64,000 nt of DNA from Marsupella aquatica (GCA_973895155.1 OZ316899.1:5335241-5399240); one strand, 5' to 3'; shown: positions 18,417 through 60,800, counted from the stretch's first letter. Notes: a model not told the origin generated them from the sequence alone. Made by a program: numbers and translations.

Positions 18417-18643
18417 TGGTCGAGAATCAAAGGAGAAGAGTTACGGAAGCTGTGGAGCAAACAATGAACAGGGAACAATGGTTGATGGAGTAGTAAACGG
18501 ATATCGAGGACGAATCCGTAAGTAAGTAAAGGAGAATGTAAACCAAGAAAATAATTAAGTAGAATTAGTGGAGAAACGTCAAGTGGAAGATAATAGATCA
18601 AGTATTTAAGGGGATTAGTGGCAGGTAGGAATAGCTTAGTAAG

Positions 18644-19222: not shown

Positions 19223-19589
19223 AGATGTTCGATGCAGTAGTCTCAGTTGAACAGAGTATACCAATCGGGAACTATGGATTGCGGTTTAGCAACCGCAAAA
19301 TAGCAGTTTATTAACTGCTATGCAGTTATGTTTGATTAGTAAGTTAGATAACAGGTAAGCTAACTCCAAACTTGTCGGACCCATTGTCCTCCCCTTGGGG
19401 CACTCCCCTTTGGTTTGAACTAGCCCGCCCATAGATGTAGGGCGGGCACCATCAACTTCCATTCGAAAAAAGCAAATTGGCCGCCCAACAACCTCTAGCA
19501 CCAACGCAATCCGACTTTATCCTTAAGAGGCCGAGAGGAGTGAAACTAGGATACAACTCACAAAGGTAGCTACAGTTGCCTGTACCAGT

Positions 19590-25467: not shown

Positions 25468-25694
25468 TGGTCGAGAATCAAAGGAGAAGAGTTACGGAAG
25501 CTGTGGAGCAAACAATGAACAGGGAACGATAGTTGATGGAGTAGTAAATGGATATCGAGGACGAATCCGCAAGTAAGTAAAGGAGAATGTAAACCAAGAA
25601 AATAATTAAGTAGAATTAGTGGAGAAACGTCAAGCGGAAGATAATAGATCAAGTATTTAAGGGGATCAGTGGCAGGTAGGAATAGCTTAGTAAG

Positions 25695-26273
25695 ATGGCT
25701 GGGAGACTAACATTAGAAGGCACGACAATTTTTGCTATATGGAGTAGTACCGGATTAGGGTTTTGCTATGAGGGATGCGATACCAAGCTAGGAGATGGCA
25801 GAGATTGCGCTCTGGGGGTGAAAGCAAGACAACGAAGGCAAATGGGAGAAGACCGATTGAACATTTTCAGTAGGGACCAAGGCACTCATATTTGCAAGCT
25901 CGTAGGAGAGGGGAAGCCCATGTTCCGATTTATGATCCGACTTAGGGAGGGAGACTGCCGAGTATGGAATGAAGCGGGGCAACAACTTTTTGGCATGAAT
26001 GGTGAAACTTTCCAACGATAGTTGACTACTCAAGAAGGTGTTGAAGAATTTTGCAGGGGAATCATGTCATCAAAGTGGAACCTGACGTTGGGACGAGAAC
26101 TTGATCAATGACAACGTCATTGCTAGAGGCTAATTGCCGTTGAACGAGTAATTGTTTTTTGGAGCATTAGTGAACCAGAAGATCCATTGAATGTCTATCA
26201 TGTGACATCAGAATTGATAAACTTAACCATTGACAGTTCAGAAACCACGGCTCCAACCACCAATCGCTTATAG
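25695..26273 (+). pseudogene. RPA/OB-fold-like protein (copy 2, premature stops)
   Basis: Same length as 18644-19222; carries CAG>TAG, CGA>TGA and TGG>TAG stops. Confidence 0.55.
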
Positions 26274-26612
26274 AGATGTTCGATGCAGTAGTCTCAGTTG
26301 AACAGAGTATACCAATCGGGAACTACGGATTGCGGTTTAGTAACCGCAAAACAACAGTTTATTAACTGCTATGCAGTTATGTTCGATTAGTAAGTTAGAT
26401 AACCATTTTTTTAGTCAGGCAGTTGGAAACCGGTAATTATTCCGGGAGATAGTATTTAAGGCAGGCAAGAGCGTAGAACAAGGTGTCACTTTTGCAATAG
26501 GTAATCTGGTTGAAAGGCAAAGGCAGACTTTCCCTAAGATCAGTAGATCTGTTTGAGTGTTCCCTACTCAGATGTGAGTAGAATTTTGATGTTGAGAAGT
26601 AAAGAAATCATT

Positions 26613-30426: not shown

Positions 30427-30559
30427 AACTGAAGCACCTCATTCTCAAAAGCAAGAATTCAAAAGTGTCCACAGAAGTTCCAATTACAAGAAACCAGTTA
30501 CAAGAGCCCCATGGATGTCAAGTCTTTCCCTGAGTACTTGCAATCATTCCCCCGGCCAG

Positions 30560-31215
30560 TACTTAAAGCCCTTTCCACAAGGACCCATAGTCGTTCCAGG
30601 ACTTTGAGTCCTTCAAAATCCTTTGATAAGGACTCAAACTCCTTTGGAGTCCTCCCACGAGGGCGCGGGGTCCTTGCCCAAGGACCCGGAGTCCTTTCTA
30701 GTCCTTTCTCAAGGACGTTTAAGTCCTTTGAAGTCCTTGCCCAAGGATTCTAAGTCATTTCCCAAGGACTCAGAGTCCTTCCACAAGGACTCAGAGTCTT
30801 TTCCCAGGACTCTGACTCCTTCCACGAGGACTCTAACTCCTTGCCCGAGGACTCTGAGTCCTGCCCAAAGATGACTCGTAGTCATTTCCCCAGGACTTGC
30901 AGCCCTTGCCCAAGGACTCACACTCAGTCCTTTCCCAAGGACTCTGGGTCCTTTCCCAAGTCCTTTCCCAAGGACTCGGGGTTCTTTCCCAAGGACTAGG
31001 GGTCCTTTCCCAAGGACTAGGAGTCCAGTCCTTGCCCGAGGACCTCTGACTCCTTGCCACTTGAGGACTCCAAGTCCTTCAAAGTCCTTCCACAAGACCA
31101 AGGACTCTATCATTGACTCTACCAAGACCCTAAGGACTGAAGCTCTTGCCCGTAGACTTCAAGTCCTCACGCTAGGACTTGGGCCCTATAAAGGACTTGA
31201 ACTCCTCAGGCCTTG
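30560..31215. repeat. Degenerate ~21-nt tandem array with palindromic core AAGGACT-nn-AGTCCTT
   Basis: Many copies of CCCAAGGACTC(T/A)GAGTCCTTT variants. Confidence 0.85.
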
Positions 31216-32798: not shown

Positions 32799-35700
32799 CT
32801 ATAGAGAGGGGTCCAAATCCTCCACTATGACTACATTTGGTTGATCCTGAACGGTGGATCGCGAGTGAGGGATGTAAGGCATGACAATGGACCACTCTGG
32901 GTCATCCGGATAGGGAAGATAAAATGCTTGCTCCAAATGATGGGGAAATGCAAATGGATCTGACGTTCTCCAACTGGAACTAACAACACTACGTGCACTT
33001 GTCTTCAACCGTGTGAAACCACAAGCATCCTCTTCACAAGTCCGGTTGTGGCCGACTTGATTCATTCAAAACCACTTGCACTTCAACACCACCTCCTCCA
33101 AGGTTGTATGTTGTTGATACTTGATGGTAAGAATCTCCTCAATTTTCCCATAGTGTGCCACAGTACTACGTATGGGATTTCTATCAGATGTGCTACTCTG
33201 TGAATCTTGGATGAACCACCCCATCACCCCACAATCTTGTGTTGCTGCCCTCTTCATATCAAGATGTTCAACTCGGAAATGCCTCCCCTTTGACCACATG
33301 GCTGTTCGAGTTGTGACTGTAAGTAATGGACCATGAACCAAGGTGCGCATGTCACCGGTGGCCTCTGGGAAGTGCAAAACACTCTCACCCCGACCCAACA
33401 AGGCATCAATCTCTGCCAACTTCTCCTTCATATATGGGAGAAACTTTGGGAAGAGGCGTGGCCGTCGACTATTCTGCTTCTCCTCCTCATAATAGGTACT
33501 CCACTCCCCTGCAATCTCTGGAGAGTTATACAACATGAATGTGGTGAGCTGGAGGCGCTCACCAGACCCTAGTAGTCATTCTCCCTTTGCTCCTGTGAGT
33601 CTATCATCCTCATAGTCTGCCTCTCGTGCTGCTTCATCTGTCCATCCCCTTGGAGCATTTGGATCAAGTGTAGACACAATATTTGTACAATAGAACATAC
33701 TTTCTGCTCCAAGGTGACGCTCAGCAATGCTACCTTCCACCCTTACTAGCACGGTTTGACACATACCCCTTCATGACTCCCATGTACCGCTCTATCCAAT
33801 ACATCCAACGACAATGTACAGGGCCTGCAATTGCCACTTCACGCACTAGATGTATGAGAAAATGAACTTGACCATCAAAGAAGGAAGGAGGGAGTGCTCG
33901 CTCCAACTTGCACACTACCTCCACTCCAAACACCTCCATGGCAGCAATCTCATCCTCATTCACCTCCTTTTGACACACCCACCTCAACAACCTACCCAAT
34001 GACCAAAGGGCATCTCGAAGATCCTCGCTGCCCAATCCGATAATAGCAATTGGAATAACATGCTGCAAAAGGCGATGGTAATCATGGGTCTTCAAGAAAG
34101 CTGGCCACTTTGGAGAGTCATCTCCACCAAATGCCTTGCGGAGATTGGCACCATACCCTGTAGGAAACTGCATTGACCCTATACATTTGCGAAACTCTGT
34201 CCGCTCATTCCTCGTCAAAACCCATGGGGGGTGGATAGTAAGGGGATGATCAAGATCATCCATAGATGGCCAAAAATCATGAAGTCCATGCATCCCCATC
34301 TCCTCACAACTCTCTCTCCAGTTGCTGTTTTTCTCCCCATATAGATGTCGGATCAATGACCTCCCAACATTTCCCTCAATATGCATAGGGTCCAATAGAT
34401 GGTTAATGGGCATGTGGCCCCAATATGGAAGTTGTGATAGTGCTGACAAACGCGTCATTCCGCATCTAGCCAAGGGTATTGGGTCAATGACCCTCTCCCA
34501 TACCTCCTTCCAATATGCTGGGTCTTTTCGCTGAGGTTGAGGATGTGTATCTGGTTGACCCAACTCTGTGTCATACAAAAATGGATCATACCTCCATTCA
34601 TGCTCTTCTGGAAGATACTTTGTGTGACCAATGTAAACAATCTTCCGTAGGGTGGTAGACTTTGGGCGTGCCACTCCCTCCAAATCGGGACCACAAGTCG
34701 GGCAAGCTCGGTATCCAGAAGTTTGCAAGCCAAAAACATATCCAAACCCTTGAACAAGAATGGTAACAAAACACCACAAATGTTTCAAAGTAAGTTCATT
34801 TTCAGAAGCAACGTACCTAAGGGACAAATCCTATTTAAAATTGAGCATACATTTATAGATAGACCATGCAATGCAAAGCCATATGTACGTAATTTAATTT
34901 AAAGGAAGTGCCACAAATCCATATTCATACCTGGAAGATCATGCATGGTCCACATAAGAATGGCCTTCAACTTAAACTGACGGGGTAAGCCCCCTGTATG
35001 CACTCGGCCATCATAGCAATCCACTCCTCTCCATAGCTCTTTTAGCTCCTCAATCAATGGTTGCAAGTATACATCAATTTGCTTCACTTGCTTAGGACCA
35101 GGGATAATCATGGACAGGATCAAATGACCCTTCTTCATGGCCATCCATGGTGGGATGTTGTAGTTAGTGAGGACTACTGGCCATACTGAGTATGGTTGGG
35201 TCTTGCCAGCCATTGCAAAAGGGCTTATACCATCTGACGCCAAACCAAGGCGAACGTGACGAGGATCAGTCTTGAAATCACCCCAACAATCCTCCACAAA
35301 TTTGTTTGCAAGGGAGTCAACCATCATGCGCATGGTAAGTGGATCCAAACTCATGTCTGAACGATGTTGGGAATGCCATATCATATACTTAGCCAACTCT
35401 GCACATCGAAACTGGTGACGCAAACGAGGAATAAGGGGAAAGTACCTCATAACCTTTTGAGGTACTTTTCCAGTCAACATATCCTCACAATATCTTGGGG
35501 CGTTGCAGGTGGGACATGTCACTGCATCCTTGTGCTCTTTCCTGAACAAAACACAATCATTCACACAAGCATGTATGACTTCATACTTGAGTCCTATGGA
35601 CTTCAACACTTTCTTTGCCTCTTTCCACGATGCTGGCAAGTTGTTCCCTTCTGGCAACATACGCTCATGCAATGTCCTAAAAATATCATCAAGGAGCAAG

Positions 35701-36101
35701 TTGCTTGCTCCGTGTCTTTGCTGCAAGTTCAGTAATAACATGATTGCCGAAAGTCGAGATAATCTGGACCCCTCAAATATGCGAGTTCGTGCATGCTCCC
35801 GAGCCTCCTCCCACTGTTGGGAATGTGATTCCCGTGGAGGAATGTGACCAGAAGGAGGAGGTAAGTCAATGTCCTCCCAATCACCCATGTCATGATCACC
35901 TTCCCCTACATCCATGAACTGGTGCATCAATTCATCCATAGCCTGCTCCTCATGCACTCTTTCTTGGGGAGCATTAGGTACTTCATGTGGAATGTTTGCA
36001 CCCTCAAAACCTTGACCCCCTTCCTGACCATGCATGGCCTCACGGAGATGTTGTCGCATAGCTCGTGATAGTACCTCAACATCTGGTTGAGCAAATGTAT
36101 T
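32799..36101 (-). pseudogene. TnpD/Tnp2-type transposase of CACTA 2
   Basis: IHACVNDCVLFR, LGLASDGISPF, YNIPPW, HDLPG, LDPMHIEGNV, LKTHDY, RWMYWIERYM; intron ~34750-34930; frameshifts and stops near 33730, 33576 and 33066. Confidence 0.95.
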
Positions 36102-36161
36102 CTATACATAGAACAACAATATTGATATTAGGCCATGGTGGTTAATTAACTTAGTCAATTA

Positions 36162-37217
36162 TTACAGATCCATGTCTTTCTGACCAATAACACATGAAAG
36201 TCTGACTATGTCAAATTTTATATATATACAAAATTGGATGTACATGTATGCATATATGTGCTTTGAAGGATGACAGCGTATGGCCATCTTAGGCGCATCC
36301 CAATCATAGTCATAAAATATCTCCTCACCAGCCCTAATAGTCCGTATGGCTACAGTCATAATATGGTCATCCATATGCTTGACATAGTAATGTGGTGGTG
36401 GTGCCCCAAAAATTTGAACCCACTCTACATTTGGTTCAAGTCCTCTCTCTCTCCCTTTGGTACTATTGATGTACCCAGCGATGTTATCACATCGCACAGG
36501 ATCACCATCAATCATTCTACAATGCCAAGGCCTCTTGAGGACCTCATCCGGATCAGAATCCATCTGCAATGCATACACCCCCCATGCTGGTTGTTGCCGC
36601 AAAATAATGTTCCAGTTTTTGGCAGTGTATATGGCACCAATATAAGGAAACAAGTGCTCCCCATCATAACCTCTTCGCCACGGCTTTGGATGGACCACAA
36701 TGTCCTCCATAGCAAATAACCCAAGTCCTACATCAACACCAAGGGAGGATGGCTTGACTATCCATTGACGCCCCCATATCTCTACAGGGGCATCGGTGGG
36801 TATGCCAGGAGTGATTCTAAATATCTCAGATGAGAAATCCTTCAAGACAGTCATTGCCTTTCCTGTGAGATATGACAACCCCAACCTACCCTCCACTACC
36901 ACATAATCCTCACCCCGCTCTACCAAAGCAGCATGGACCAAATTTGGGCCTAGGGACTCGTGAGTGGCCAAAGGTTCATAATGTCTCCGATATCTATGGG
37001 AGCGAGGTCGGGTGCGTAGAACCCTAGTACATGGAGGTGCCTCTGGCTCACCCATCTCCGTGTCCTCCATTGGTCCCGGTATAGTTTGGGCCTCAACATG
37101 GGGAGGATTATGAGGAAGGGGTGTAGAAGTTGATGCAAGTAGCCCTCTTGCACAACCCAAAAATGTCTCTAGCCACAGGTCATTAGAGACCAATGGACGG
37201 CGGGGCCTATGGGGCAC
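36162..37217 (-). CDS. SET-domain protein (putative lysine methyltransferase); domain ~36300-36764
   Basis: VKPS..GLGLFA, PYIG, IDG, NIAGYINS..PNV, A.RTIRAGEEIFYDY: SET motifs I-IV in order with no stop or frameshift. Confidence 0.88.
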   Translation of the reverse strand: MPHRPRRPLVSNDLWLETFLGCARGLLASTSTPLPHNPPHVEAQTIPGPMEDTEMGEPEAPPCTRVLRTRPRSHRYRRHYEPLATHESLGPNLVHAALVERGEDYVVVEGRLGLSYLTGKAMTVLKDFSSEIFRITPGIPTDAPVEIWGRQWIVKPSSLGVDVGLGLFAMEDIVVHPKPWRRGYDGEHLFPYIGAIYTAKNWNIILRQQPAWGVYALQMDSDPDEVLKRPWHCRMIDGDPVRCDNIAGYINSTKGRERGLEPNVEWVQIFGAPPPHYYVKHMDDHIMTVAIRTIRAGEEIFYDYDWDAPKMAIRCHPSKHIYAYMYIQFCIYIKFDIVRLSCVIGQKDMDL

Positions 37218-42922: not shown

Positions 42923-45900
42923 ATCACCAGTCCGCTTCTAGTGGGGGGGGTGGCACCGGGGCTCCTAGTGGTTCTCGCCATTCAGGGGCTGCAGGTGGCG
43001 GGAGTAGTGGGGCACATGTTGCTTCTCGTCATTCAGGGGCTGGTGGTGGGGAGGGTAGTGGGACCCCTGCTGGTTCTCACCAGTCAGTTGGGGATGGGGG
43101 AAATGCCCCAGCTGACCAGTTAGGGGCCAACCAGGGTACTACGAGCGTTGGAGGCAGTGGCGGTGGTGCGAGTGGGTCTCACCAGTCGGGTGCCATCGGG
43201 GGTGATGGCTCTCACCACTCTGGCACCCAAGTGGGCAGTGGGGATGCATCCTTTCATACTTGCTCTGCTGGTGGGGGTGCTGCACCGCCTTCACATGACT
43301 CAGGAGGTGTGTCTGGTGGTGATGCCCGTGGAAGTAGTGGTACAGCAGGTCCTAGCACCACAAGTGCAGGTGGGTCACATGCCCCCATTGACGAGGCCCT
43401 AGAGGTAGTGCCAGCTGCTAGTACCCCACCATCAAGATCTCACACCCGTTCCAAGAAAAGGAAGGGACGACATGCACCAGCATATGGATAGGGCAGCCTA
43501 GGATAGGCCCATATATAGGTAGGCATTTTGCCGATTGACTTAGAGTACACTTGTGCATTTAGTACTTACCATGTTCATTTGGCAAGGCCAGGCCATTGAT
43601 CCTCTTTTGTATATCTATTTTGGGGTCTCCCCTTTTTGATTATATATTTATACCTTCTTTGCCTACACACAGATGTTGGGGTCTATGTGTGTCACCATCT
43701 TAATACCCTAATTCAGCCCCAAATTAAATCCAATAAAAACCCCAAATTTATGAGCCCTACTCTATTGCTTCTGATCTGCTTCCAATACTAGATTTGACGC
43801 TCAGTCCAATACACATTCCATTGCTACCATCGTTGCAATGTCCGATGTCACATCCTACGCACTTTCCAATTTGGAAAATAACGCAACGTCCGATAATTAT
43901 AATTACGCAATTTCCAATTTTTAAATAATCAGATAAACCGATATTATAAACATCGGACCATGATCGAATGTGTACAATGCCTTGCATGCGGTAGCTGCCA
44001 CGTTTCCGAAACTCTTCGCATTGGGCGTGATTGTATTCGATACCTTCTACGTCGGTCTATGCGATTACTACTGCATCGGAAAGTCCGATGGAGATCCGAT
44101 TGTTGGTATCCGATGGTTGAAACAACGGACAGTGCGATATAAGAAACATCAGAAACGTGGTTCTCTATGGTGCATTTTTATGAAGGGATCCGATGCCTGT
44201 AGGTCGGAAAATGGCCCAATAATGTACTAGTGTAAGGAGAGTCATCCTCATGAGTACCCTGTTCATGCACGGAAATAGTGTGGTTCACATTGCACAACCG
44301 CATAGCTTGGACTTGGGCTTCTTCCTGCACACACAAATGAAGACATAATTTACTACATGGCCCAAAACCGGAACCTTAGAAACCAAATACCAATTGAAAC
44401 ATGACAGTGTGCCTCTACATACCAGAGCTTGCGTGGACTGCATTTGTTGCACAAGGTGACAACGTCTGCCCAAGCAGGCACTGTTTACCCCGTATGTTCC
44501 CTTCATCTCTTGAATATAGCCACCTTCACCCAATGGCAACTTGTCCTGCCCTATGTTTGGAAGACCCCAACTTTGAACCCAATCTTCCAAAAAGGGTTTC
44601 CCACATGCAAAGCAACAGGGTGCTCTTGTTTTATCCCCCAACAATGTAAATAAACAATGTGGATGATACATGTGGCCACAACTTGCTGGAACCCAGTTGA
44701 AACAATGGTACCCGTGGCAACAAATTGGACAATTACTCGCAAGCACTTCCGTTCCCACTATTGTAGTTGATGTGGGAACAAACCGAGGTTGCAACACTGG
44801 ACATGGATTGGACAAAAGAGACTCCAAAATAACCAGTTCAGACTTTTGAGCTGCTGCAGACAACTCAAGGGGCTTCAGGTCTGCTTCCAACTGTGACTCC
44901 ACAACTTTTAGACGAGCTACCTTCTCTGGTACCCATTCAAAGCGCTTGTTGTTGGTATCTATGAGCTTGTCAAATGTTGCCATCCCCTTTAGAATAGATG
45001 ATTCATTGTTCTTCAACGCCTCCATGTCCTTGTTACCATCCTCCAACTTCTGCCGTAAGATAACAATGTAGCTATCCTGCCCCCCCCCCCCCAGAAAAGA
45101 AAACAGCACATGGCAACATTATTTTGCAGTTCATCATGCATCAATGCCTCGTCCTACCAAACCGAATCCAACCACCCAACAAAACATACATAGCCTACAG
45201 GTATTTTGAGCAACACAAGGACAGGCCTATGGTCTGACAAGCAGTATACCTCCTTGTCTTGCTCTCCCTTCAGCTCCTTGAGCTCCATTTCTGTTGACAA
45301 GTCATCATGTAGGGTGTCCCTTGCCTGCATTTTGCTTCTCACCTCACCCAACTCTTCCTCTAGTTTGTTACGTTGCTCTTGAATGACAGAGATGACTGCT
45401 GGATGATCCCGTTTTGACCCCTCCAAGCTTTTCACAGTCTTCTGAACCGCACTGATGCGCTGATGAGTCTCTTTTAGACTACATTCAATCGTGATGATTT
45501 GCCCATCCAGAATGGACAGCAAAAGACTTCTTGGCAATGCAGGGAGAACAGGAGCCTCGGGCTTGGTAGGGAGAAGCTTTATTTGGGGGACACAAAGGGC
45601 CGCAGCTTCCAATGGTTTGGGACGTGGGCTCCCCTTGCTGCAAGAATCCACTATCCCTGGGTGAGCTTTGTCCCTCGCTGTTTGATTCTTGGTAGAAATC
45701 CGTGGGATGGGCTGTGGGAGACGCGTTGAAGGGTCATCCACAAGCCACTTCAAATTTTCTTCATCAAATTCCGCAGGCACTGGTGGTGAATATAGATGTA
45801 GCCTCCTTACGCAAGGAGGCCCGTCTGGCTTACCCTTACCATCTCGCTCCCATTGGGCAATTTGCCCCTTCAGCTTGGACACTGCATACACACATCAGTC

Positions 45901-47215
45901 CACCTTTCGCCTTTGGATCCTGCCTGCATGTGGAATGGCAAAAAGGAGCATTGGAGTGAAAATGGTACATTTTAAAACTTTCTGACTTTAGTTGAAGCTT
46001 CCCCAAGTCAATTGGTTACCCCTTAATACATTTTAAGCCTCAAAAGATCATTCTGGAGAAAGTTGAGGAGTTTGGATTTTTTTCCGGAACAATCGCTCAG
46101 AAAGCTCTCCGAAAGAAATTGCTTTGGCAGAAGAATTGGTTAGAAGTTGCTACAACAACTTTGACGGATGATTGCGGATCGGCCCAATGTTGGTTTGAGG
46201 AGATTTTTAGACTTTGTGGAAAGGTATTTCCAAGGGCTATAGAGAGAATTTTAGTTTGGACCCAAAAGACATACTTCAAAATGTCTCAAATTGATTCTCC
46301 GAGATATTCTGGCACTTGTTTCCTAAACCGTTTTACATTTGTTTTGCACCTCTTGAGCTTTTCCAGTAGTCAGTTAGAGTAGGATATAGAGAGACATAGT
46401 TTAGTACACCTTTAGGAATTAGATTTAGAGGGTCTTAGACTCATCTTACCTTTTAGGACTTTAAATTTAGATACGAAAAGGTTTGTAGACCTTTTAAACC
46501 TTTTGGCATCTCAAGCCTTTGAGGGAGCCTACAATTGGACTCCTAGGACCATTTTTCATTGTCTTTTCCTTGGAATGTTAATCTTTGACCAGTTTTGGGT
46601 CTTTCTCTCATGCCAATTTTGGGCTTAGGAGGGAAGATTAAACCAAGAGGAATTGTACCACACTTTTGCATTGGAATTATAGCATTTGTCTCAAGTTCAT
46701 GAATGAATGTCATAAGAATCATGAATTTGTAAGAGAAAACTTTGAGATATAGGGAAAGGAGAATTGTAGTGAGTTATTCGACGTAAAACCAATCTCTATT
46801 GAGTATATGGAAGTCGATAATGAATGAAAATCAGATTACCTATTGATAAGAAGTAAACACTTATAAATTTATTGATCTTTTGAAATCTATTGAAATGTTG
46901 TTGTAGAATTGTATGCACAAGAAAATAGTGAAGAAATTGCTTTGCGATTTCAAAGTACATAAACACCTGCATAATTTGTTTCACTTATTCCTTACGGGAC
47001 CGAACCTTGGTATTTAAGGACAAATTACACACATTTGGGTTGTTTCCACTTACCACACTGCATAGGCCCCTTTGATGAAAGTGAATGACAGAAAGCCATT
47101 CACTGGTGAGTCATAACCATCCACAACTTGGGATAGCTGTAAAACCTCCTCAATTGGAAGGCCAACACAAAGACTCAGGTTATACCCGTTCCTGTCTTTC
47201 TCTCCTGTGATGCCT

Positions 47216-50200
47216 TGCAAGGATCACGAAGTACTTAGTTAAGCCTAAAATGATGGCTAAATAAAGATTAGGTAGATAGTATAAGGTAGGAACAAAGACC
47301 GAAGCCGATTGCAATGTGTTACGGGGAGGATTGCGATAAGGTAAGATCCAACGATCACGATTGAGCGGGATTAGGGTTATGACCTAATCTGGGCTTGATC
47401 AGGCAAGCCACCAGGAGGCGGATTTGTGGGGAGGGGACCGACACTCTATACACTTGCTCATTTGCTTGTTCGATCAACCTAGGGAGGTGGAGGCAACTGC
47501 CGATCGATCAAGGGAGGTGGTTAGGGAATTTCTCAAGATCCTTTTTCTTTTGGTGGAATGACCACGGTGAATCAAGCGGCCAAGTTTTGGGGCTGTTTGC
47601 TTGAAGAAGCACGATACCTCATACCAACTTACAAAGACGTCAAGCCGGAACGAGCAGCAAGGGAACGGGCGGAGCTCGCGCGGTTATGGGGAATTCATAA
47701 GATGGCATTTGTGGGAACAGAGGAGGTACTTGAGAAATTCATATGGATTTCCACCAGTGCTGAGCTTGACGAGTTGCTGATCAGAGAGAATCAAGTCGTT
47801 GGAATTTGGGAGGCGATTAAGAACGCTGGGCAGCCGGTGTGGGAGTTGAAGGGTCACACTTTGGCTTGGACCAAGGAAGCCATTCTTGGAGAGTTCTCAG
47901 GAACTGAAGAGATGAAGCGTAAGGGTAGTTTGGCGTCTGGAACACCAACTAAGCGGAACCGGTCGGAGAGGCAGGCCAAGGTTGAAGCCGTGCCAGTTCG
48001 TGATAGGGCAGTAGAGGATAAGTTTATGGCGGGTTGGGCAGATAGGCTACTTGCCGACTTACAACTGCAGTTTGCACGAGAAGAAGATGAGGTCTTCTAT
48101 GCTATCCAGGATAACAAGTATTCTGGATACATGAACAACACCGGCTTAAAGGGATTCATCCGGTTGCTGTGGCGGTTAATTGACATACCAAACAAAGATC
48201 TATTAGACTTCGTGGGATGCTGGGAGGCTTCTTGTAACACGACACTGATGTATGGGAAGGTGGTGGAATTAACGCCAACACTAATTGAAGCCGTCTTCGC
48301 TCTTCCACAAGGGAATAAAACTAAGGTGGAGCAGCGAAAGACATTGCCGGATAACCAATTCCAATCATTTCTAGGGCCCTCAACTAAGAATGGGTTCTTT
48401 AGAAATCAATGCACTAATCCACATGTGGGGCAGTTGATTGATTTCTTATGAGTCACGCTACACTGTACATTGCCGAGAGTAGAGATCGGCAAGGCCCAGG
48501 TATTTTTGGTGGAGAATATCGATTCAAGCCGAGACTACAATGGCTATCTTTTAATGCAGTTAAAGAAGGCATTAAATGAAGAGAAGCAGAGTATTGGGGA
48601 AGGAGCGGTATCCATACTAGGGTACCATCTGCAATTACTTTGCCGATATGCAAGAAGTCAGTCTTTTGCACCCATGCTACCACTACAGGAACAGATGCCG
48701 ATCACAGCACCGTTGGAGGAGGACGAGGAGCCCCTGCACAAGCGACGGCAAGAGAAGAGGTTGGCAATACAGGCAATTTAGGGATGGGAGAATTCCCCTC
48801 GCAAGGAATCGGAAGTAGTAACATATGATGTGGTGAGAAACCCTTGCGACGGCCTACTCGTAATAATCCATATGCAGGTATTCAACTAGTAGAGAGGAAG
48901 ATGACTGCCGAAGAAAGAAAGAAACGGGATGAGCAAATGGATTCGGAGTCAGAAGATGAAAGCCGAGGCCAAAGTCAGGAGAGGCCAGTCCTTAGAGCTT
49001 CTAGCCGGGCCCAAGTGGAGGAACCAGTGGAGGTAAATCAACCAGTGGGCTTTGCAGAAGAGGTCGGCATGCTCGGTAGTCAGGTTAATGTGGATGACTA
49101 CGACGATGATTATGTCAATCATGGGGAGAGACCGGTGCCAGGTGTGAGAACGTTGGGAAGGTTTTGTAGAAGACTTCCCTCAGTCTTTTATGGCAAGTCG
49201 GAGGATCAAAAAACCCCAGAGTCTCCTCCACCGGATGTGACACCATTGGAATTTGGCCGAATGAAGGAGGCCGAGGCAGGTTTGAAGGAGAAACTCAACG
49301 AGTGGAGGGCCCAAAATGACATGCAGGAACGGCAGCTACCAGGTGGTGATTGGCTGGAGGAAATAAAATGGCTTAGTGAGAAGCAGGCCAAGCCTCTCAC
49401 TAACTTTGATCAATTACAGGCATAAGCTTGGGAGAAACAGCCCTCGTTGGCAGATGCCAATATCACCTGGCAAGTCAAATTATGCGAGGGATTGGGCTAG
49501 GGAGTATGGAGACATGTGTAAACTGCTAGCCTTAGAAATCTTCGGCAATGAGTTAGAATCCGGACCATTTCTTAGAAAGGAAATGGCTGACCAAACAAGG
49601 TTGGAGGAGGCAATGATGTTGGAGCGATTAAAGAAAGAAGAGGTAATTGCTCGACTTTCCTACATGGAAGCCAAAGTTGCTAAGACGAAGGTTGATCAAC
49701 AAGCTCAACAGGATCTCTTGGCTAGGCAGCAGAAATTAGAGGTGGCGAACAACCAATTGGAAAACTACCAATTGGACAACCAGCAGATCAAGGAAAAATT
49801 GACAAAGGTACAGTTGGAGTTAGCCAATTCAAAGGCGGAGGCACATGGTCTAAATCGGCAAGTTGAGAGGCTCAGAAAGATAGCTAAGGACCAGGCCACC
49901 CAGAGCGAGAAGGCCTTGGCTAAAGCCCAAAGGAAGTATGAAAAGTTACTCGACCGGTTGGAGGCCATGCGGGAGAAGCATGAGGATGCCGTTTGTACAG
50001 CGGCCAATGATCACCTAAGCCGAGTCCAACAGATACGCAAGGAGCTTCAAGAGGAGATAACCAAGACAAAGCAGGCATGGACGGAGGAGGTCATGAAGCT
50101 GGAAGCCATCAACAATTCCCAGAGAGCCGCTCTAGATAAGGAGTTTGAGATCGTGCAGATCTTAAACGAGGAACTAAAGATGGCCAAGGATGAGCCGCAT

Positions 50201-51721
50201 TGGCTCAACGAGGAAGTTGAGGATTTATCCCAAGAGCTGGAGGAGGCCAAAGACAAGATGATCGGTTTGCAGAGGCATGCAAATAATCAAACGGAGAAGT
50301 TGCGGAAGTATGCCGAAGTAGGGCACGGATCACCGAGTGGACGGTCTCCCGCTAGTGGCGTGGTAGCCGGGAATACTGAGGTGTCGAAGCCGACATCACT
50401 ATTGTCAAGAGTAACTGGTAGTAAGGCAATGTAGTTGGTTGCAGATCTGACCAAAACATTCATGGGGCCAACAAGTACTTCTGGGGTACTCTCAAGGCCA
50501 CTCCAGAAGAGGTCGAGAGTATGGCCGCTCACATTTGTGGGACTGTTGCTACGAAGGCAGCCGTGGTAGAGATAAGTAATGCCATTGAACTTGGAGCTAA
50601 TGTAACAGGTTCAGACACCGATACAGCCACCATGGACTACCAGAATGTGAAGCTGTGGAAGATCAATACCAAACGTATTGGAGAGCAGGCTTGGATTGAG
50701 GAAGTGAAGCCCAACGCTATCCAAGCCGTTTCCTAGGAGGATGCCGCTGCCATTGCCGATGCCGGGGCCAATAAACCAGAACTCAAAGTCGAGGAAGCCG
50801 AAGGGATCAAGCCAGAGCCGATTGTAGGAGAAGGTGCAGAGTTGGAAGATTCGGGCTTACCCCCGGTCATCTGACAATTAAGGAGGGCCAGTCGTCGGTT
50901 GGAAGGAGGACGTGGCGGTAGGAGAAGGTCTTGGGCCAGAAGGGCGCGGCTGTTGTAGGATGGGACAGGGCAAGTAGCGCCCTGTTGGCTTAGGTAGTAT
51001 TAGATGCTTGATTCCTGTAGAGTTCTGGGTTAGTCAAGTTATGTTTAGGTGAAAGTTAATTAGCTGGATTATCACGGTGGAAGGCCGTGATTTGTGGTTC
51101 GGATTTCCGCCGATTCCCCTGGATGCGCTGCAAGGATAAAAACCTGGGCAGCATGGCTCGAGGGGCTTTTTCTTAGTCAAGACTCTAGTGTAAAGTCAGT
51201 ATTGCTAGCATAAGCTCTCGGCTAAATCTAGACCACGGATTATCAATAAACCACAAATTTCCATTTATGTGCAATTGTTTGAATTGAGTTGGCCTTGTTG
51301 CCTAGTTCGTAGATTCTTGCAATCATGGCGTTGTGTGTTGTGATACTTGTCGCTTGATCGATTTGAGTCAGATAGAGCAATACTGTGAAGCTATACGATC
51401 GCATTGTCTTGATTGGAGACTGCCAAACCAAAATCTGAGAGAAAAGTGAGGATTGAGAGTGTTTTGTTGGTTAAAGTGTGGGTTGAGTCGGTCTGAGAAA
51501 AACCTTCAGCCGGCTTAAGAGATTAAGCCGTAGAGGTACATTTTGGGGGCGGAATACAAACATACCTGACAAAGTCAATTGAGAATTAGGCGTCTCAGCA
51601 ATACACAATTCACAAGCCCAGTGAAAGAATTGGTCCAGCATAGTGTGGATCGGAGAGTAGACCGCGTTTCCAAGCCAAATAGTAGCCAAACCACCATAAG
51701 CCGACCATAAGTAGTGGTTCA
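47216..51721 (+). mobile_element. ~4.5-kb solo-LTR-like insertion related to the LTR at 7375-11378
   Basis: TG...CA ends; splits a minus-strand ORF; carries a homologous accessory gene; shared U5 hairpin at the same distance from the end; no gag/pol. TSD not cleanly recognisable. Confidence 0.75.
47558..50434 (+). pseudogene. Homolog of the LTR-encoded accessory protein (~960 codons, decayed)
   Basis: AAKFW/AIRFW, VGIWEAI/IGFWEAL, VFALPQG/IFGLPEG, NGFFRNQC/NGFVMKTC, EIGKAQVFLVEN/EISAA(Q)VIQVEN; C-terminal coiled coil. Confidence 0.8.
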
Positions 51722-53393
51722 TAGCCAGTTGCAGATGGTTCTTGGGGTTAGAGGTGTTGGGAAACGTGCCACATCTCCAAACACCTCGGCCAATTGTTCC
51801 TTGGAAATGTCTTTGATCTTATGAGGATTAATACCTTCGTTTGGAAGACCAAATGTGGTGTGGAAATACTCTACGTCCTTAACGTAATCTTCAGGATTGC
51901 ATGACTCTACAGGCACCTCCACCTTAGCCTTTCCTTTTAACGCTTTGGTACTCTCAGATAGGGGAGCAGGAGAGTCAATCGTAGCATGGTCCGTACCTAG
52001 GGAAGCAAAAACTTTGGGTTTGCTAGTAGTTCGCGCTCTGCCGCTACGAGGGATAACAGGGTGTGGGACAACTATCTCCTTTTCTCCTAACTGAATGGTA
52101 GAAGTTGGAGGAGCTTCTGGCTTATTAGTTGACACATCCATGACGCATCCATGACTACATGAAGGTATCACTGAGGAAAGCTAGTGTTCAATGGTGAAAA
52201 CTTCAACTACCATCGGGCGCACAACTATAGTAATTACCTCAGGGCTGTTGCGGATTGAAAATGGATGTTCAATCACCAATGACTTGCAGGTAAAGTTTCC
52301 TCCATTGGCTTCAGGCCAACCGCGCGCCCTGCATCCAATTTATACAAATGATGAGTCACTTTAAAAGGTTCGATTACTGAGAAGGCTTGTACTCAATCTG
52401 TGATTCATTGGTATAGTTGTTTGAAAACTACAAACAGGGCGCTATGACCTATCGGAAGTCAGCTAAGGGAACCAAAACAAATCTAGCCATTGTTTTGAGA
52501 GTTTCATGATTGCGCAAACCAAACCTCAGGCGGTCAGTGGAAGCTTAAGACACATCTGAAGAATAGATTTCTGATATAGCTGTTCAATTCAAACTTAATC
52601 CAGAATTTGCAAATGACGTTTAACATACCAAGCTATTGTACAGTTCGACTGTCAAAAAAGCTCCCCTCAATTTGAACTTCCCTCACTACCTTGCTTGTGT
52701 TGCCAACAAAGCTCCTTTCAAACCTCCTCCACTGACTGCCAATGTCTAGCTTCAAGCTATTTCACAATGAAAGCTCCCTTGTATTCTCAATGGTCTCAAT
52801 GGTTTGAACGAGAGTCCTCTAAATCAATTGCAATCAATGTGACTCAATGCGTCCATGGAAGGTAGACCTCAGATTATCTTGCTAACCATTGTTGCTCTCC
52901 CTTCCTCACCCGACGTTGAAACGTTCACTACTTTCTAATTTTGGCAACTATGGTTTTCAAGCTCGGTTTTCACCATCAAAAAGTTTGAGAAATTGTGGAA
53001 TGCTGATAAAACTTGCCGCGTCCGCAAGTCCTTACCACTATTGTCATTGTCGCGGCTAGGATGGAAGGACTCGGAGTCCTTGTTTTCAAATAGTCCTTGA
53101 CGACGGGGGACAATAGGACATAATTATTGTCCACTTTCCAAAGTCAATTCATGCAAGCTACTTCCCCGAGGATATTTATTAAACACTTCTCGCATGTAAG
53201 TACTTTATGACTTAAATTAGGCTACTAAATCCAAAAATGGTTATAATGGAATCATTTCTCAATCATTTAATTCTAGCCTTTGATCTGTGAATTTTCAATC
53301 TTGGCCATTGAGGGATATGTTGCACATTTAATGCAACATGGAAAGGACTTGAGTCCTTGTCTAGGAGAAAAAAGGACAAAAATGGTAGTCCTC

Positions 53394-56300
53394 AATCATG
53401 CAATCCACTGCCAGAAGCAGCGAGGAATGTGAGGCAATTGTATAACTACGCAATGCTATGCTACTTCATCAAGAGAATGCCACCTCTATCTGTCTTCAAA
53501 AACTAGGTGGAAGAGGTGATGATGAACAGAGTGAACTGGCCGATACTACAAGATGAAGTTTGTATATAGGGAGGAACTTCTACATGGTGGTCTTTGAAAA
53601 TCCTTACCATTGCAATCTTGCACTCAACTACGCACCTTGGTTTATAGAGCGTCGGTATGCATATACATTCCCTTGGGATCCTGCATTTGATGTTAAATGT
53701 GAGAGCTTCACCAAACTACCAATCTGGATCGAGATCCCTTTTTGTGCTCTTGCATTGGAAGGTTGCAGGAGGAAGATAGCCAATACATTGGGGACCTTGC
53801 TCTACTACATCCAGGGCAGCCAATTCAGCTCATACCCATAGGATAGAGCTTGCATCCTATGGGACACTGATAGGGAAGTGCCCTCTAGTGTGAGAATACA
53901 AATTAGAGATGACATTGTGATTTGGCAACTAGTGACGTTTAAAAATATCCCTTAGTTAGTTACCACTGCTATAAATGCAACCAAAGAGGACATCTAACAT
54001 GCAACTATAAAGAGGAGCCTGGTTTGGGATACAAGCCTTGAGAGGGTGGAGACGGGGGGTATCCACCGGATGAGAAGGATGATGAACATCATTCTGAGGC
54101 AGATCCAAAGGAGGTACGCAAAGCTACAGCCAATGCTGAGGCGAGGGCTCTTTTTTGTGCAACAGTTGTTGCCCCATCTCTGCTTGTTCCCGTGCCTATT
54201 TCCTTGCCGGTGGTTGCTGACATCGCCCAAACAGAGAGCCTTATTTGGATTCCAACTTCCCAGAGAGGAGAAATACCATCTCTTGTGCAAACGCATTTGG
54301 GACACAACGACCCTGCTATGGTCCCCCTGATGGGAGTGGAGCACATGCCTTGGAGAGTTGTGACCCCACCTGTTAGTGCCTGTGGGATCCCTAACTCACA
54401 AGTACTCCTGCCAATTAAGATGATCAAACCCCCCTCTAGCCCGGGTCCACCTCTTGACCCCTTGGCACCAAGCTTTGGCCCAGCTATTATTCTCCCTGGG
54501 GCACCAGCTAGCTTGAGTGCGGCTTGCCTCCCCATCTCCACCAGGGAGTCGGGAGAGGATGAGAAATTTTCATTCCACGAGGGTTCTGATGTAGAGATGT
54601 CAGAGTATGAAGAATAAAGTTTAAGGCCCAAGCACACAAACAGGAGCTACGCACCCCCCCAACTGATAGATCGGAGAAAAGCAAGGGTGAGGCTAAGAAA
54701 CAAAGATCACTCAATTTCTCACAAGGATTCTTATCTGATGTAGGAGTGAGTCTGTCAAGAAAGTCCAAGGAAGGAGGGGACCCCTTGCAAGTTGACTTGA
54801 GGATGTTTAATTTGCTGGCCCAATGCTTGCACTGATCTGCTTGAGTATGGTTGGGAATGACTCTCCTACCCTCTGGATACATGAGTGGACCAACAAGTTA
54901 CCAAGCTTGTACAAGAGTGTCCCCAGGTGGGACGCAACCGGCTCTAACAGCTCCATAACTAGGGGCAGGGAGACCTTGCTATGCAATTACACTGCATAAG
55001 CAGGAGATGGCAGATCTTTTTAGGCTGGCATTGTCAAATGTTTGTGGCCTTTGCAAGCCAAATCGCAAGCATGTGGTCAAGAAATGGGTGAAATCATTGA
55101 AGACACCATTGAATCTTCTTGCATTACAGGAAGTTAAAACTGATCAGTTTTGCTTAGACATGGCGTTGAGAGAAATCATGCCTGACTACCAACACTTCTC
55201 TTCTATGCCAAATGAGGGCCGTGGGGGAACAACTCTTTTGGTCCACCCAAAGCTTGAGGTGGTTGGATCAAGAATTATGGACCTAGGATGCGCTTTGTGG
55301 GTGGTGGTGGACAAGGAAGCTGGGAAGATGGACTTGCATGTGTTTATGCCCCCAACTTGTCCAAATTAAGAGCATTGCTTTGGAATGACCTCAAGACGAT
55401 GCTCCCACAATATGACTGGATTGTGTGGGGGGAACTCAACATGATAGAGCGCAGGTCGGACTCTACTTGTAATTTGCCACTGATACAAGGAAGAGAGGCG
55501 GAGATCTAGAGATTTCTTAAAATGCGGCTTGATATGGTGGACGCTTGGGACATCAAAGGAGCTGCTATTGGCCCCAATTTCACATGGAGACAATTTTGGA
55601 GTGGGGAGTTGGTGCAGTCAAGGCTGGACCATTTTTACCTAAGTGAGAAAGGATGGTGGATAGGAGAACTGGTTGAGCTCATACATGAGGTGGCTCCGCT
55701 CTATTAGATCATGATCCGGTGCTAATGCATGTGAGGCTTGCAGGGCCTAGAGTGAAGGGGAAGAGAGGGAATACCAAACTTTTTATGGCTAAAACGGCTT
55801 TACTGAGGAGCAATGACGATCTGCAATTGTTGGAAGAAGCTTGGATGAAAGGAAGAGAGAACTTTGCAGACCCTCACCTTCAATTTGCAAAGGGATGTGT
55901 CCAATTGCGGAACACCTACAGGCAACTTCAAGCCAGGCCTCAAACAACGAAGATGGAGCTGGCTTTTTTTAGAGCACGGTTGCGTGCTCTTAAACTATCC
56001 ATTTTGGAGCTTGGGGGGGTCACTACATGGAGGGTCATACATCGCATGCGACGTTTTAGAATTTGACCCCCCTAACTTATAAGTGAAATTATTATTTTTG
56101 CAAAACCCTTTTTTTCTTTAAATTTTGTCATTTTTTACTAAAAAACCCCTAAAAACTTTAAAGAAAATATTTTTTACAATTAAATAGGCTTATGCGTTCT
56201 TTAAAGTTGATTAGTCAATAAAACATGCCCTATGTGTTCTTCCACCAAACTTTGGAAGTCTTCCGCCACAGCTATTTAAATGGGCCTATACTTTGTTGCA

Positions 56301-57817
56301 CGTGATGTGCCACTTCCGTGGAAGTGACCCCCTGAGTTTTGGAGGCACATTGTGCCTCTGAAATTACATAGTACATGGAGGTGGAGGATTTTTTGCATCT
56401 GACAGAGATTGTGGAAGCTTAGAGGGGCCAAAGACTTGTGAGAGTTAAGTTTTTGCTACTCTGAGAGCAAAGAGATCCAGAGAAGCTATGAGATCCTTGA
56501 TTAGTGATGATGGGAGGGTGATTGATGACCTATGTGAGATCCTTAGTGAGGTTGAGGCATTCTATAAGGGCCTGTATTCGCCTCCGGATCTAACATCGAT
56601 TGAAGTGGTGGAGCAAGGGAGAGCTAGAACATGCTTATTACAAAATACTAGATTTGCATTATCTACTTCGGAGATATTGCAGATGGAGGAGCTTCCATCC
56701 TTCCAGGAGGTGAAGGATGTATTGTGGCTTATGGCAAGTGATAAATCCCCTGGACCAGACGGCTTAACAGCAGAGGTGTACTGGGCCTGTTGGGGATTCA
56801 TGGTAGAGATCTGGTTGATGTGATATAGGAATTCTAGCTTTCAGGTGTCCTCAATGGTGGGATTTGTGAGGGGATTTTTAAATTCATACCAAAGAAACCA
56901 GATAAACATCACTTAAAAGACTGGAGACCAACTGACAATGCTAAACACAATGTATAAAATCATTGCCAAGATCCTTGTTCTACGCCTAAAACCTCTCCTT
57001 CATAAGGTTATCAGCCCTCAACAGACGGGCTTCATTCCAGGGCGGCACATCCTTGAGAATATTTCTCTTGCAATGTTAACATGTGATTGGGTGCAAAATA
57101 GGAAGAGTGAAGCACTATTTCTGAAGCTTGATTTTGAAAAGGCCTTTGACATGGTCTGCAATGACTACATTAGGAGTGTATGCATTTGGTTGGGTTCAGT
57201 GGGCACTTTATCATGCTAGTGAAAGCACTGTTGGCAAAAGCTACCTCTAAAGCACTGGTAAATGAATTCCTCTTAGAAAAGGTGTAACTCAAGCATGGAG
57301 TGCAACAAGGATGCCCACTCTCACCACTTTTATTTGTAATCTCCACACAGCCACTAATGGACTTCCTTGATGCAGAGATTGACGAAGGGCAACTCAGAGT
57401 CCGACCGCAAATCACAAAGGACCTCATGATTTGCTACAAACTATTTGAAGATGATGTTGGCATGTTCATCCCAGCTATAGAGAAGGACTTTGAGGATGCA
57501 AGGTTGGCACTGGAATGTTACAAGATTGCCAGCGGCGCCAAACTGAATCTAGAAAACTCTATGGTTATTCCATTGGCCTTGGAGGCAATTCCGGGATGGC
57601 TAACTAACACTGGATGTATTATCAGTCAAAAGGGTGAGGTACAAAAATACTTGGGTGTGCCATTAGGTGTGGGTTTGCATATAGAACAGTTGTGCAAATT
57701 CTGTTTAGACAAGATCAGCTCTCGTCTTTCTGCCTTGGTGAACAACCTGTTGTCCTTCATAGGTAGAACCCTTTTGGTTAAGCATATTTTGCAAGCAATT
57801 CCTATATATCATGTGAT
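53394..57817 (+). mobile_element. L1-clade LINE, decayed and truncated at both ends
   Basis: ORF1 DUF4283-like (APWF, LPIWIEIP) plus CYKC..H knuckle; ORF2 endonuclease (LALQEVK, VYAPN, SRLDHFY, DHDPV) and RT (KSPGPDG, LKLDFEKAFD, QGCPLSP, KYLG). Confidence 0.93.
56013..56332. mobile_element. AT-rich MITE-like insertion in LINE ORF2
   Basis: Imperfect TIR GGGGGTCACTACATGGA / GGGGGTCACTTCCACGGA around an AT-rich non-coding core that interrupts ORF2. Confidence 0.6.
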
Positions 57818-60800
57818 GGGTCATTGTAACATGCGAGGAAACAGTACAAAAATTCCTCGCACGGGAACATTTTCTCCTCCATATATGCAAAATCTGGCAT
57901 GGTTATCACCTTGCTAGCATGACTTGAAACTTGCTAGGACAAAACCAATCTATTAAACAATAGAAAATTCACTATTCCACTCAATAACAAAACCTATCGT
58001 GGATGGTACATTTGTACATATCACGTATTTCACGCACAACTGGCCACTCAAAGCAACAATAAGTGACCATACTATTTGAACGTACGTCAGGCCAGCAAAA
58101 TCGCTAGTAATTGTGCCACCCATGATTCTCGCACAAACTTTGGTGTGTGGTCCTTAACGACGTGAAACAATCATCATGATAACGGACAGGGAATAATTTT
58201 TTTGACTTAAACAATCTTGGGAGCGCATCCAAGGACAGAATCCAAAGCTTCATCCAGCCGTCGAGCGTGACACCCGCAACAGACATGATCGTAGCACACC
58301 CAATAGACAAGATCCCAAACCGTTGGGAAGGATCAATCTCCCGCTATCCACCATCCCCTATATCTCCCTCGCACCTTCAGAAACATTTCCATTCATTCCA
58401 TTTTGGACACTCTTTTGGGCTCTCTTTCTGTTCGACGCGAGACTCGAAGCGCGCTTCTCTTGTTGTCTTTGCGGGAGTCAAAGCCCTGTCATGACTTGTG
58501 CTACTATCGTCACAACATTACATCAAGTTCCTCCTCAATCACAAGCACAATAGATTTGGTAGTCGGATCCGGATTGAGGTATCTTCGTTCTCTGTCATCT
58601 GTTTCCCACCTGCTGTTTGGTATTCTCTCAGGTACTCGTTGTCATCCACTTTCTGGTTTGTCAACATAAGTAGACCTTGCATAAGATTGTAAGTAATCTG
58701 AATTGCATTAGTTTTTGTTACAGGGAGAAATGGCACGGAACGAGAGTAGAGCTCCTCCAAAATGGATTCTCGAAGTCCGGCAATATAACGCCAAAACGGA
58801 GGGTCCACTAGACTCCCCGCCAAGGTCCCCTCCACCAAAGCAGAGTACGTTCAACACTGTAGTGAAGAGCAATACATCTCCTTCCAGTTGCGTGGCTCCC
58901 GTCGTCTCCAAGGACTCAAAGGTTGTCGCACCTTCTAAAGAGACATTGTCCAAGGCGGTCTCCCGAACACCATTGTCTTCTTGCTCAAATGTCCCTGTCT
59001 CTAAGGGGGTTTTTGAGAAGCGCAAGAGAGAAGAGGAGGAGTCATACTGGAGGGACCTCGAGATCCACAACTATTGGACAGAAAACGTACTCGCTTCCTC
59101 CGACTATGATACAGTCTCCGACTCTGATTCCAACGTGTACAAGGCATCGAGCCCTTAAACAGAAGTCCAATATCAGTAGTCCATCTTCTAGGGGGGATAG
59201 ACATTTTGTAACAGTGTATTGTATCCTGAGTCTGGTCCCTGGACCTTGGAGTTGCAAAGAGTTCTTGGACATTTCATGTGTAACAAAGTTATATGTCAGA
59301 ACATCTTTGTTCATTTTGCAATAAAATCTTGAGAAGTTTGTCTGATTGTAATGTTCCAACCTGTCCTATTATTGCTAGCAACATCACTAGTAAAACTATG
59401 CATGACTACAATGGTTTGTTTTCTCGCACACATGAGTTATGGAACTCTAAGTTAAGTAGATCTTTGTCGAACAGTACCCGTTTAGCACAAAACCAAAAAC
59501 AGTTACTTCACAAGTTTAATGCCAGTGACATTCCTAGCAAAATAAACAACAATGTGGACACTTACTAAATTGTAATAGACCCTTGCTAACATTACATACA
59601 CAATATAATTAGTGAGGTAGAGGACCTTCCTTTGTTCTGAAAACCAGAAGGTGACAAAATGAGGGACGCGGAAACGTTCACCTCAACGGATAATAGAGAT
59701 TAAGTCAACTACACTGCAAGATAATCAAACTCCTCACTTCAGCAACAGTCAGAATTGGCTGCTTCACAAGATCATCTCTCTCTAGATTCAGTGAAAACTT
59801 ATTTAAGTACACCCACAAGAGGTGTTTACAAGACATGTAGAGTCTTCCTCTGGTGTGTCTCTTGTAGAAGGGTGTGTCTCTTGTAGAAGTTATCACATGA
59901 ACAAGAAGGAAAGCAACACACTTGGACCCAGTATTGGTGTGCAATTTTAGAATCTGTCTCGTGAGTGACAATAAGATATTGCCATCCCCACCCATTTCCA
60001 AGGCATATCTTCTCACTTCCAATGACTCTCATATGTTTGTCAATCGCAGATCGAATGCATTTATGAAGCTCCGGGGTGTTCTGGAAATGTTGACGAACGC
60101 CTTTCCCATTCCAGGTCTTGAATCTACGGTTTGGACAACCAATGTCAACTCTTTCTAGGAAGGCGTTCACATCAATTCGGAGGTCAACACAATTTGGAGA
60201 AGAGAATGACCCGATCGGTGTTGGATCAGAGTATGATAATCCTCTGATTTGAAACCCGTTTCAAAGAAGAAAGACAATCTCTGTTGGGGTCAACCTGGTC
60301 CCTCGCTGGACCTGCAATGCCTCAGGTGGTTCCGGAAGCTGGGCAAGAGTCCTTCTGCCACCTATTATTTGGACAGAAGTACAGAAGCTGACAATGTGGA
60401 GAGGACAACCTCAATCCGTGAATGGCAACACCAACCACTCCAGCCTGCAATGCCTTCAATCCAGTTTCTTTGATGAGATTCCTGCACTCATCTTTTCCAA
60501 ACACACTTCGGTCCACTCATCCGTTGCAAACAGGTCCACTCCCTTTTCCACTCCGCCTCAAGTGCCAGGTCCCATATGTCACATCAACCTCTTCAATAAA
60601 AGGGATCCTTCGGGGTGCATCCCAAATTTCATCCCAATTATTTTGAGACGGTGGAATTTCTCCAACATAGTTCGGGTCCTGTGTTGCATCTCCACGGCTT
60701 TGTTCTTCACCATCATCTGATATATTAATAACTTCACAAGGGAGGGGAGGTCTAAGGCAAGTGGGATTGTCTTCATTGTCAGGAAAGTTAGAAGGTCCAC

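Follow-up and report, generated by a model that had tools for sequence, protein, structure and literature searches.

The anti-silencing factors for which sequence-specific action is proven are products of DNA transposons. As described in PMC5735166, the VANC protein carries a DUF1985 domain, recognises a short motif and removes methylation from its own transposable elements (TEs), and DUF1985 is reported to be structurally like the PMD of MAIN/MAIL1, with PMD-A present in angiosperm Gypsy elements (10.1101/2024.09.27.615353, PMC5418596, PMC13547354). What the accessory open reading frames (ORFs) of plant retrotransposons do is treated as an open question in PMC7264820. We analysed a stretch of 64,000 nt from Marsupella aquatica (GCA_973895155.1 OZ316899.1:5335241-5399240), hereafter the window, whose content is a nest of plant transposons, among them a solitary long terminal repeat (solo LTR) at 47206–51773 with a protein gene inside it. 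On balance, we favour reading this repeat as a solo LTR from a multi-copy family of Ty3/gypsy type, in which lies a broken gene with a predicted VANC-fold core, likely coding for a DNA-binding anti-silencing factor.

The ends of the insertion were determined from the window together with contigs of four public runs from two studies, which held relatives of the segment (shares 0.23–0.47) and were aligned over 46600–52300; their depth was not taken as copy number. In three of the four runs a contig joined 47200 directly to 51774, with five letters compatible with both sides, and in all four the empty site continued behind 47205 in loose contig ends. The element between these points has the termini TGTG and CACA, that is, TG...CA with a short inverted repeat, and is flanked by a perfect target-site duplication (TSD), TCTCC. 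The earlier note on this sequence had set the ends at 47216 and 51721 and reported flanks (TGCCT / TAGCC) that form no clean TSD; the true ends lie 10 and 52 nt farther out, and the duplication had looked poor because the ends were placed too far inside. The features of the insertion site are as follows.

47050–47200, minus strand: host reading frame, 3' part (empty-site comparison).
47201–47205, plus strand: left TSD, TCTCC (contig joint, window sequence).
47206–51773, plus strand: solo LTR of 4,568 bp, TGTG...CACA (contig joint, depth step, TSD, no internal end repeats).
51774–51778, plus strand: right TSD, TCTCC (window sequence; in other copies the primer-binding site motif follows the LTR end here).
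51779–52180, minus strand: host reading frame, 5' part, in host sequence that is itself repeated (empty-site comparison, contigs).

At 47206, contig depth rose in each of the four runs; many contigs started exactly there and the flanks preceding them varied, indicating a fixed end of a multi-copy family. Since no piece among those listed bridged the junctions of the 47206–51773 insertion, the runs probably hold other copies and not this insertion itself. In five contigs of one run (X3), the right LTR end was followed by a short T run and then TGGCGCTAG (agreement 0.72), the primer-binding site (PBS) motif that also stands after the 5' LTR of a Ty3/gypsy element in the window, here called element A. 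We presume that this motif pairs with tRNA-Asn; no tRNA genes were found in the 64-kb window. The start of the solo LTR, TGTGATGCC, resembles that of element A, TGTGACGCC. In addition, one contig of run X2 joined 49919 to 47205, from the middle of the LTR ORF to the LTR start, which suggests that a copy of the family inserted into another copy.

As the earlier note had claimed, the segment is free of gag and pol: 47206–51773 gave no tblastn match to either gag-pol of the window, and the plus-strand ORF pieces matched no retroelement Pfam family. Its interior also contained no PBS motif, short terminal repeats, internal LTR pair or long terminal inverted repeats. When the two LTRs of an element recombine with each other, what normally remains is a single LTR flanked by matching TSDs, and we hold with high confidence that a repeated host gene received a full element and that LTR–LTR recombination then left the solo LTR. 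The solo status proposed earlier thus stands, on the perfect TSD, the empty site in all four runs and the PBS motif past the right end in one. If the 4.6-kb unit were instead an independent, non-autonomous mobile element, and not the product of recombination within a full one, this would fit the contig data, in which no paired terminal repeats of the family were seen directly (pairing was observed for element A) and no polypurine tract preceded the left end 47206 in 22 of 28 loose-end rows; however, the unit is devoid of short LTRs inside it, of long terminal inverted repeats and of an internal PBS motif, the PBS motif lies directly past the end in other copies, and in element A the homologous unit has been proven to be an LTR, so that we consider this origin very improbable. 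Two specific classes were also rejected, a TSD-less tyrosine-recombinase insertion by the TCTCC duplication, and a terminal-repeat retrotransposon in miniature or large retrotransposon derivative with short LTRs by the lack of internal short LTRs.

Across the empty site, the flanking minus-strand frames connect without a shift, bearing out the earlier statement that the element splits another gene. This host gene (44288–47200 and 51779–52180, minus strand) looks spliced and has a coiled coil at its end, together with a Cys/His motif that we take to be RING-like; it had no Pfam match. Because contig depth at the empty site is high, the host gene is itself probably part of a repeat.

Most of the solo LTR is taken up by the ORF, whose 3.3 kb make up about 70% of the 4.6-kb LTR. 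Its parts, and the LTR with which it was compared, are listed below.

47558–50874, plus strand: broken accessory ORF of about 1,100 codons (reading frames; the part past 50434 is putative).
47570–47863, plus strand: N-terminal domain of an unnamed family (homology to the element A ORF, independent profile).
48071–48658, plus strand: core domain with a predicted VANC/DUF1985-like fold (homology, model of a homologue, Atlas leads).
49583–50310, plus strand: long coiled coil, limits approximate (sequence, sub-threshold coiled-coil Pfam matches).
7375–11378, minus strand: 5' LTR of element A, about 4.0 kb, with a homologous ORF (PBS motif and gag-pol after it; its 3' end is approximate).

Read from the ATG at 47558 and run to 50874, the ORF has in-frame stops at 48449, 48779, 50432 and 50734 and three frame changes. 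Its end most likely lies at 50874, 899 nt from the LTR end compared with about 896 nt in element A. In each of the three frame-change intervals, one-base indels of other copies were present in the contigs, consistent with decay of the 47206–51773 copy. The protein contains basic clusters resembling nuclear localization signals and no transmembrane segment (hydropathy maximum 1.15, 19-residue span), and an Env-like role was rejected on the latter ground.

Element A is a Ty3/gypsy element on the minus strand with gag, protease (PR), reverse transcriptase (RT), RNase H (RH) as well as integrase (INT) in the order PR-RT-RH-INT and with no extra RNase H or chromodomain match; the liverwort Tat Z2 elements are likewise described without an extra RNase H (PMC13468544). 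Its 3' LTR begins at 1287, is cut by the window edge, and is 97% identical to the 5' LTR over 1,272 aligned bases. The PBS motif starts 12 nt past the apparent end of the 5' LTR (7363–7374, minus strand), as compared with the usual 0–5 nt, and the true LTR end may be a few bases farther on. The two LTRs share the homologous N-terminal domain and core, a C-terminal coiled coil, a stop codon lying about 0.9 kb before the LTR end, a U5 motif, the PBS motif and the LTR start, while they differ in having 25% protein identity between their ORFs, no blastn match and separate branches in the core tree.

When the two ORF products were compared, the N-terminal domains showed 25% identity (E 6e-6) and the cores 25% identity over 193 aa (E 3e-16), and none of 1000 shuffles reached either score. 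The linker was unrelated (885 of 1000 shuffles) and the coiled coil gave a weak match (E 0.06, 9 of 1000 shuffles). The earlier claim of a full-length homologue of the LTR protein therefore holds for the N-terminal domain and the core, but not for the linker, with the coiled coil weakly matched and the ORF not intact. Protein homology between two LTRs that give no blastn match to each other indicates selection on the protein, and the coding-LTR layout proposed earlier was supported for two deeply diverged families, which have protein homology without DNA similarity, the same layout and the same PBS motif. The multi-copy family of the solo LTR is probably of Ty3/gypsy type; the pol gene examined is that of element A.

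A profile of the two window cores gave 38 matches at E<=0.001 among 1.84 billion representatives, two of which were rejected as spurious matches to unrelated repeats; word-index homologue searches and metagenome scans found no relatives. An organism name was available for 7 of 20 clusters looked up, and all seven were the liverwort Calypogeia fissa. Two of the relatives, P0040 (906 aa) and P0047 (787 aa), contain the N-terminal domain, the core and the coiled coil in one unbroken frame and in the same order. An N-terminal domain profile built without the solo-LTR copy scored that copy at E 5e-6 among 859 targets and matched 9 of 56 proteins, including five Calypogeia proteins. The N-terminal domain and the core both occur in C. 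fissa proteins, which are known as proteins, the LTR setting coming from the Marsupella window; CAM6082161.1, CAM6122807.1 and CAM6086213.1 are among the C. fissa genes concerned. In a FastTree core tree of 27 rows (cores over 110 aa, one per cluster), 2.85 substitutions per site separated the window's two cores, roughly the same as their distance from the Calypogeia proteins; judged by these sequences, the protein family is old.

The split host exon carried a faint echo of the core motif, the best non-LTR score of the 859 targets (E 0.17, 77 of 1000 shuffles), and membership of the host gene in the ORF's domain family was not borne out at this E value. The echo would nevertheless suit an ORF that was transduced as a neutral passenger and does nothing for the element, as would the fact that the ORFs of both LTR families are broken in the window. 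We regard such an origin as very unlikely, since domain order and protein similarity are kept between families without DNA similarity, unbroken long relatives exist, and the similarity to the host frame is not significant.

Before any structural search was made, Atlas gave DUF1985 as the sole named family for both cores (0.75 and 0.87), while no DUF1985 or DUF287 Pfam match was found in the ORF or the homologues scanned. A model built from a two-sequence alignment (predicted local distance difference test, pLDDT, 33) was set aside without a structural search. The model of P0004, the closest relative of the solo-LTR core (34% over 213 aa, E 7e-41), was built from an alignment of 30 of the 38 core-profile matches and the two window pieces and reached a pLDDT of 74.8 and a predicted template modelling score (pTM) of 0.71. 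In a wide structural search of 48,161 chains, its best match was DNA-bound VANC21 (9lnk_A; Z 7.9, root-mean-square deviation 4.3, 207 residues aligned), followed by a chain at Z 3.2. Although its Z is moderate, the VANC21 match extends over the entire domain, has no close competitor and fits the DUF1985 lead obtained before. From this model, it is very probable that the core shares the VANC21/DUF1985/PMD fold.

Several results weigh against the favoured reading. No Pfam family scored above the cut-off for the ORF pieces or homologues, the only relevant match being to Transposase_32 (E 0.059) in one of 50 homologues scanned, and an Atlas score below 0.9 counts as no more than a lead. The Z of 7.9 is in a range that the tool calls common, the identity to VANC21 is 11%, and the fold model is that of the homologue P0004, not of the broken solo-LTR copy. 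Foldseek gave no match at E<=0.001 against the PDB, a miss that counts here, or against viral models, and a sequence profile run against the PDB did not reach VANC21 at E<=10 and found nothing significant. The LTR contained no non-coding tandem array of VANC-type targets, its one tandem repeat lying inside the ORF, and the motifs GATT, AAGCC and CTTAG were enriched in it but near the shuffle maximum. The PBS motif behind the right LTR end came, among the rows listed, from a single run of the four. Finally, the same fold is described as working in silencing in MAIN/MAIL1 (PMC5418596).

The main rival accepts the same solo LTR and fold and assigns the protein another accessory role in the retrotransposon cycle, such as targeting integration or handling RNA or particles, in the manner of the Athila ORF-1, Transposase_32 and Ogre PMD proteins. 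PMD, Transposase_28 and Athila ORF-1 accessory ORFs are described as common in non-chromovirus elements, in accounts that give no shown function for them (PMC6317226, PMC7264820), Athila-domain and VANC proteins have both been modelled as coiled-coil pentamers (PMC13547354), and the weak Transposase_32 match points in the same direction. Against this, the sole solved structure that was matched is a DNA-bound anti-silencing factor and the lack of a transmembrane segment sets the protein apart from Env-like ones; we consider another accessory role possible, if rather doubtful.

The LTR contains the following candidate expression signals.

47446–47451, plus strand: weak TATA-like site (CTATA), 112 nt before the ATG, a putative promoter element.
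51245–51250, plus strand: hexamer AATAAA, a putative poly(A) signal.
51534–51567, plus strand: U5 motif of 34 nt, common to the element A LTR (28 of 35 columns).

The element A LTR has a single canonical TATAAA, 355 nt from its 5' end and 108 nt before its ATG. The AATAAA at 51245 pointed out earlier is present in the window copy, but other copies read AGTAAA (place 51246) in nearly all contig depth in all four runs, and a conserved AATAAA was therefore rejected; the element A LTR has AGTAAA 445 nt from its end, and AGTAAA is described as a known poly(A) variant of retroviral LTRs (PMC2664473). The degree of sharing of the U5 motif was reached in 4 of 1000 dinucleotide shuffles. A hairpin was found in element A (z -2.2), but the 51-nt stretch in the solo LTR folded no better than chance (z 0.5), so that what had been called a shared U5 hairpin is a shared sequence motif whose folding does not extend above chance to the solo-LTR copy. 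An Rfam scan gave two sub-threshold matches only. Judging by these signals, the LTR is probably a self-contained transcription unit with TATA, ORF and poly(A) signal, so that the mRNA could come from a 5' LTR, a 3' LTR or a solo LTR alike.

An R region of 3–4 kb would be extreme, and the gene could instead be part of a long U3 and have a promoter to itself, with the genomic RNA made from a second, TATA-less promoter past the ORF, which is the sag layout of mouse mammary tumour virus (MMTV). The known LTR ORFs sag and nef are described in the 5' third of the LTR (PMC2664473). On the other hand, the only TATAAA of the element A LTR is the one upstream of its ORF, and none follows the end of the ORF ahead of the poly(A)-like hexamer. 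We regard the U3 arrangement as a serious possibility, slightly short of an even balance; it concerns the layout only and is compatible with either function.

In the scenario that we propose, a full element would have inserted into an exon of the repeated host gene, LTR–LTR recombination would have taken out gag-pol so that a single LTR stayed behind between the TSDs, and the gene left in the solo LTR would have decayed after insertion. In working copies, the LTR would likely make a nuclear protein, given the basic clusters and the lack of a transmembrane segment, which may oligomerise through the coiled coil, bind the DNA of its own family and resist silencing. Whether the protein in fact oligomerises in this manner, recognises short motifs in the DNA of its own family and counters host silencing in trans is, on the present models, evenly balanced in our judgement. 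The suggestion in the earlier note that solo-LTR formation spreads the gene was not upheld: new sites come from retrotransposition, LTR–LTR recombination retains one gene copy in place at the existing site without spreading it, and the copy here is broken.

A wider and more tentative proposal, which we hold as a possibility rather than an expectation, is that an old liverwort-type LTR-retrotransposon lineage built a VANC-like anti-silencing gene into its LTR, so that solo LTRs would act as promoter–gene–terminator cassettes in trans. If this were true, solo LTRs would supply the factor after gag-pol deletion and the host's main removal route would become a reservoir, and the VANC/PMD fold would have been in retrotransposons long before the dicot VANDAL elements. 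A VANC-fold gene inside an LTR offers a concrete test of whether a retrotransposon protein unsilences its own family, and it bears on the host or retrotransposon origin of the PMD/VANC domains, which is left open in PMC5418596. To annotators, gene-bearing solo LTRs resemble ordinary host genes, which may explain the unnamed Calypogeia proteins.

The window contains further elements. A second full Ty3/gypsy element has its gag-pol at 20422–23240 (minus strand) and LTRs of 2.3–2.8 kb at 16517–19352 and 24111–26403, which carry plus-strand antisense ORFs, including a coiled coil (24843–25464) and a 192-aa ORF (18644–19222); we take the latter to resemble an RPA-type zinc/OB domain, and it had no Pfam or PDB match. 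From its sequence, this element would represent a third family with coding LTRs, unrelated to the solo-LTR family. A CACTA-type element at 33066–37070 (minus strand) matched Transposase_21 (E 2e-40) and DUF4218 (E 2e-22), with a SET-domain ORF at 36162–37070 (E 5e-8), a histone-methyltransferase-like gene beside or inside this DNA transposon, and a second CACTA-like transposase remnant at 11388–14815 (plus strand) is similar to the copy at 33–36 kb. An array with units of about 21 bp lies at 30558–31113, and 53500–57917 is presumably a degraded element resembling a long interspersed nuclear element, with ORF1, endonuclease and RT-like pieces.

Among known systems, the solo-LTR gene shares with VANC of the VANDAL/MuDR DNA transposons (VANC21, PDB 9lnk; DUF1985, PF09331) the predicted core fold and the character of a TE-encoded accessory protein with a coiled coil, as VANC is described in PMC13547354. 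It differs in lying inside the LTR of a retrotransposon and not in a VANDAL/MuDR element, in its 11% identity and in having no DUF1985/DUF287 Pfam match; moreover, VANC is called dicot-specific in PMC13547354, in contrast to the liverwort relatives found here. The protein is not a member of VANC, given the different host element and the lack of a Pfam match, but on the modelled fold it likely works like one. With Ogre PMD (PF10536), Athila ORF-1 (PF03078), Retand Transposase_28 and the Tekay-type ORF0 (Retrosat2/RIRE3), it shares the nature of a fast-evolving accessory gene, and the non-chromovirus Ty3/gypsy elements with extra ORFs are likewise large, with multi-kb LTRs and a 5-bp TSD; the modelled core and PMD probably belong to the same fold superfamily. 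Descriptions of those elements place the extra ORFs in the internal region, either ahead of gag or in the stretch from pol to the 3' LTR (PMC7264820, PMC6317226, PMC3485330), whereas the gene described here is contained entirely in the LTR and persists in solo LTRs. Protein genes in or overlapping an LTR also include MMTV sag and lentiviral nef, which are present in duplicate, at both ends (PMC2664473), but they belong to animal retroviruses, with an LTR of about 1.3 kb and unrelated proteins. In the literature covered, which included few subscription papers and no supplements, we found no paper on a plant LTR with a whole gene of this size or on a VANC-fold gene in an LTR. Thus, a coding ORF in an LTR is known from MMTV and lentiviruses, and extra ORFs are known in plant Ty3/gypsy elements, while a whole gene with a predicted VANC fold inside a plant LTR is likely new.

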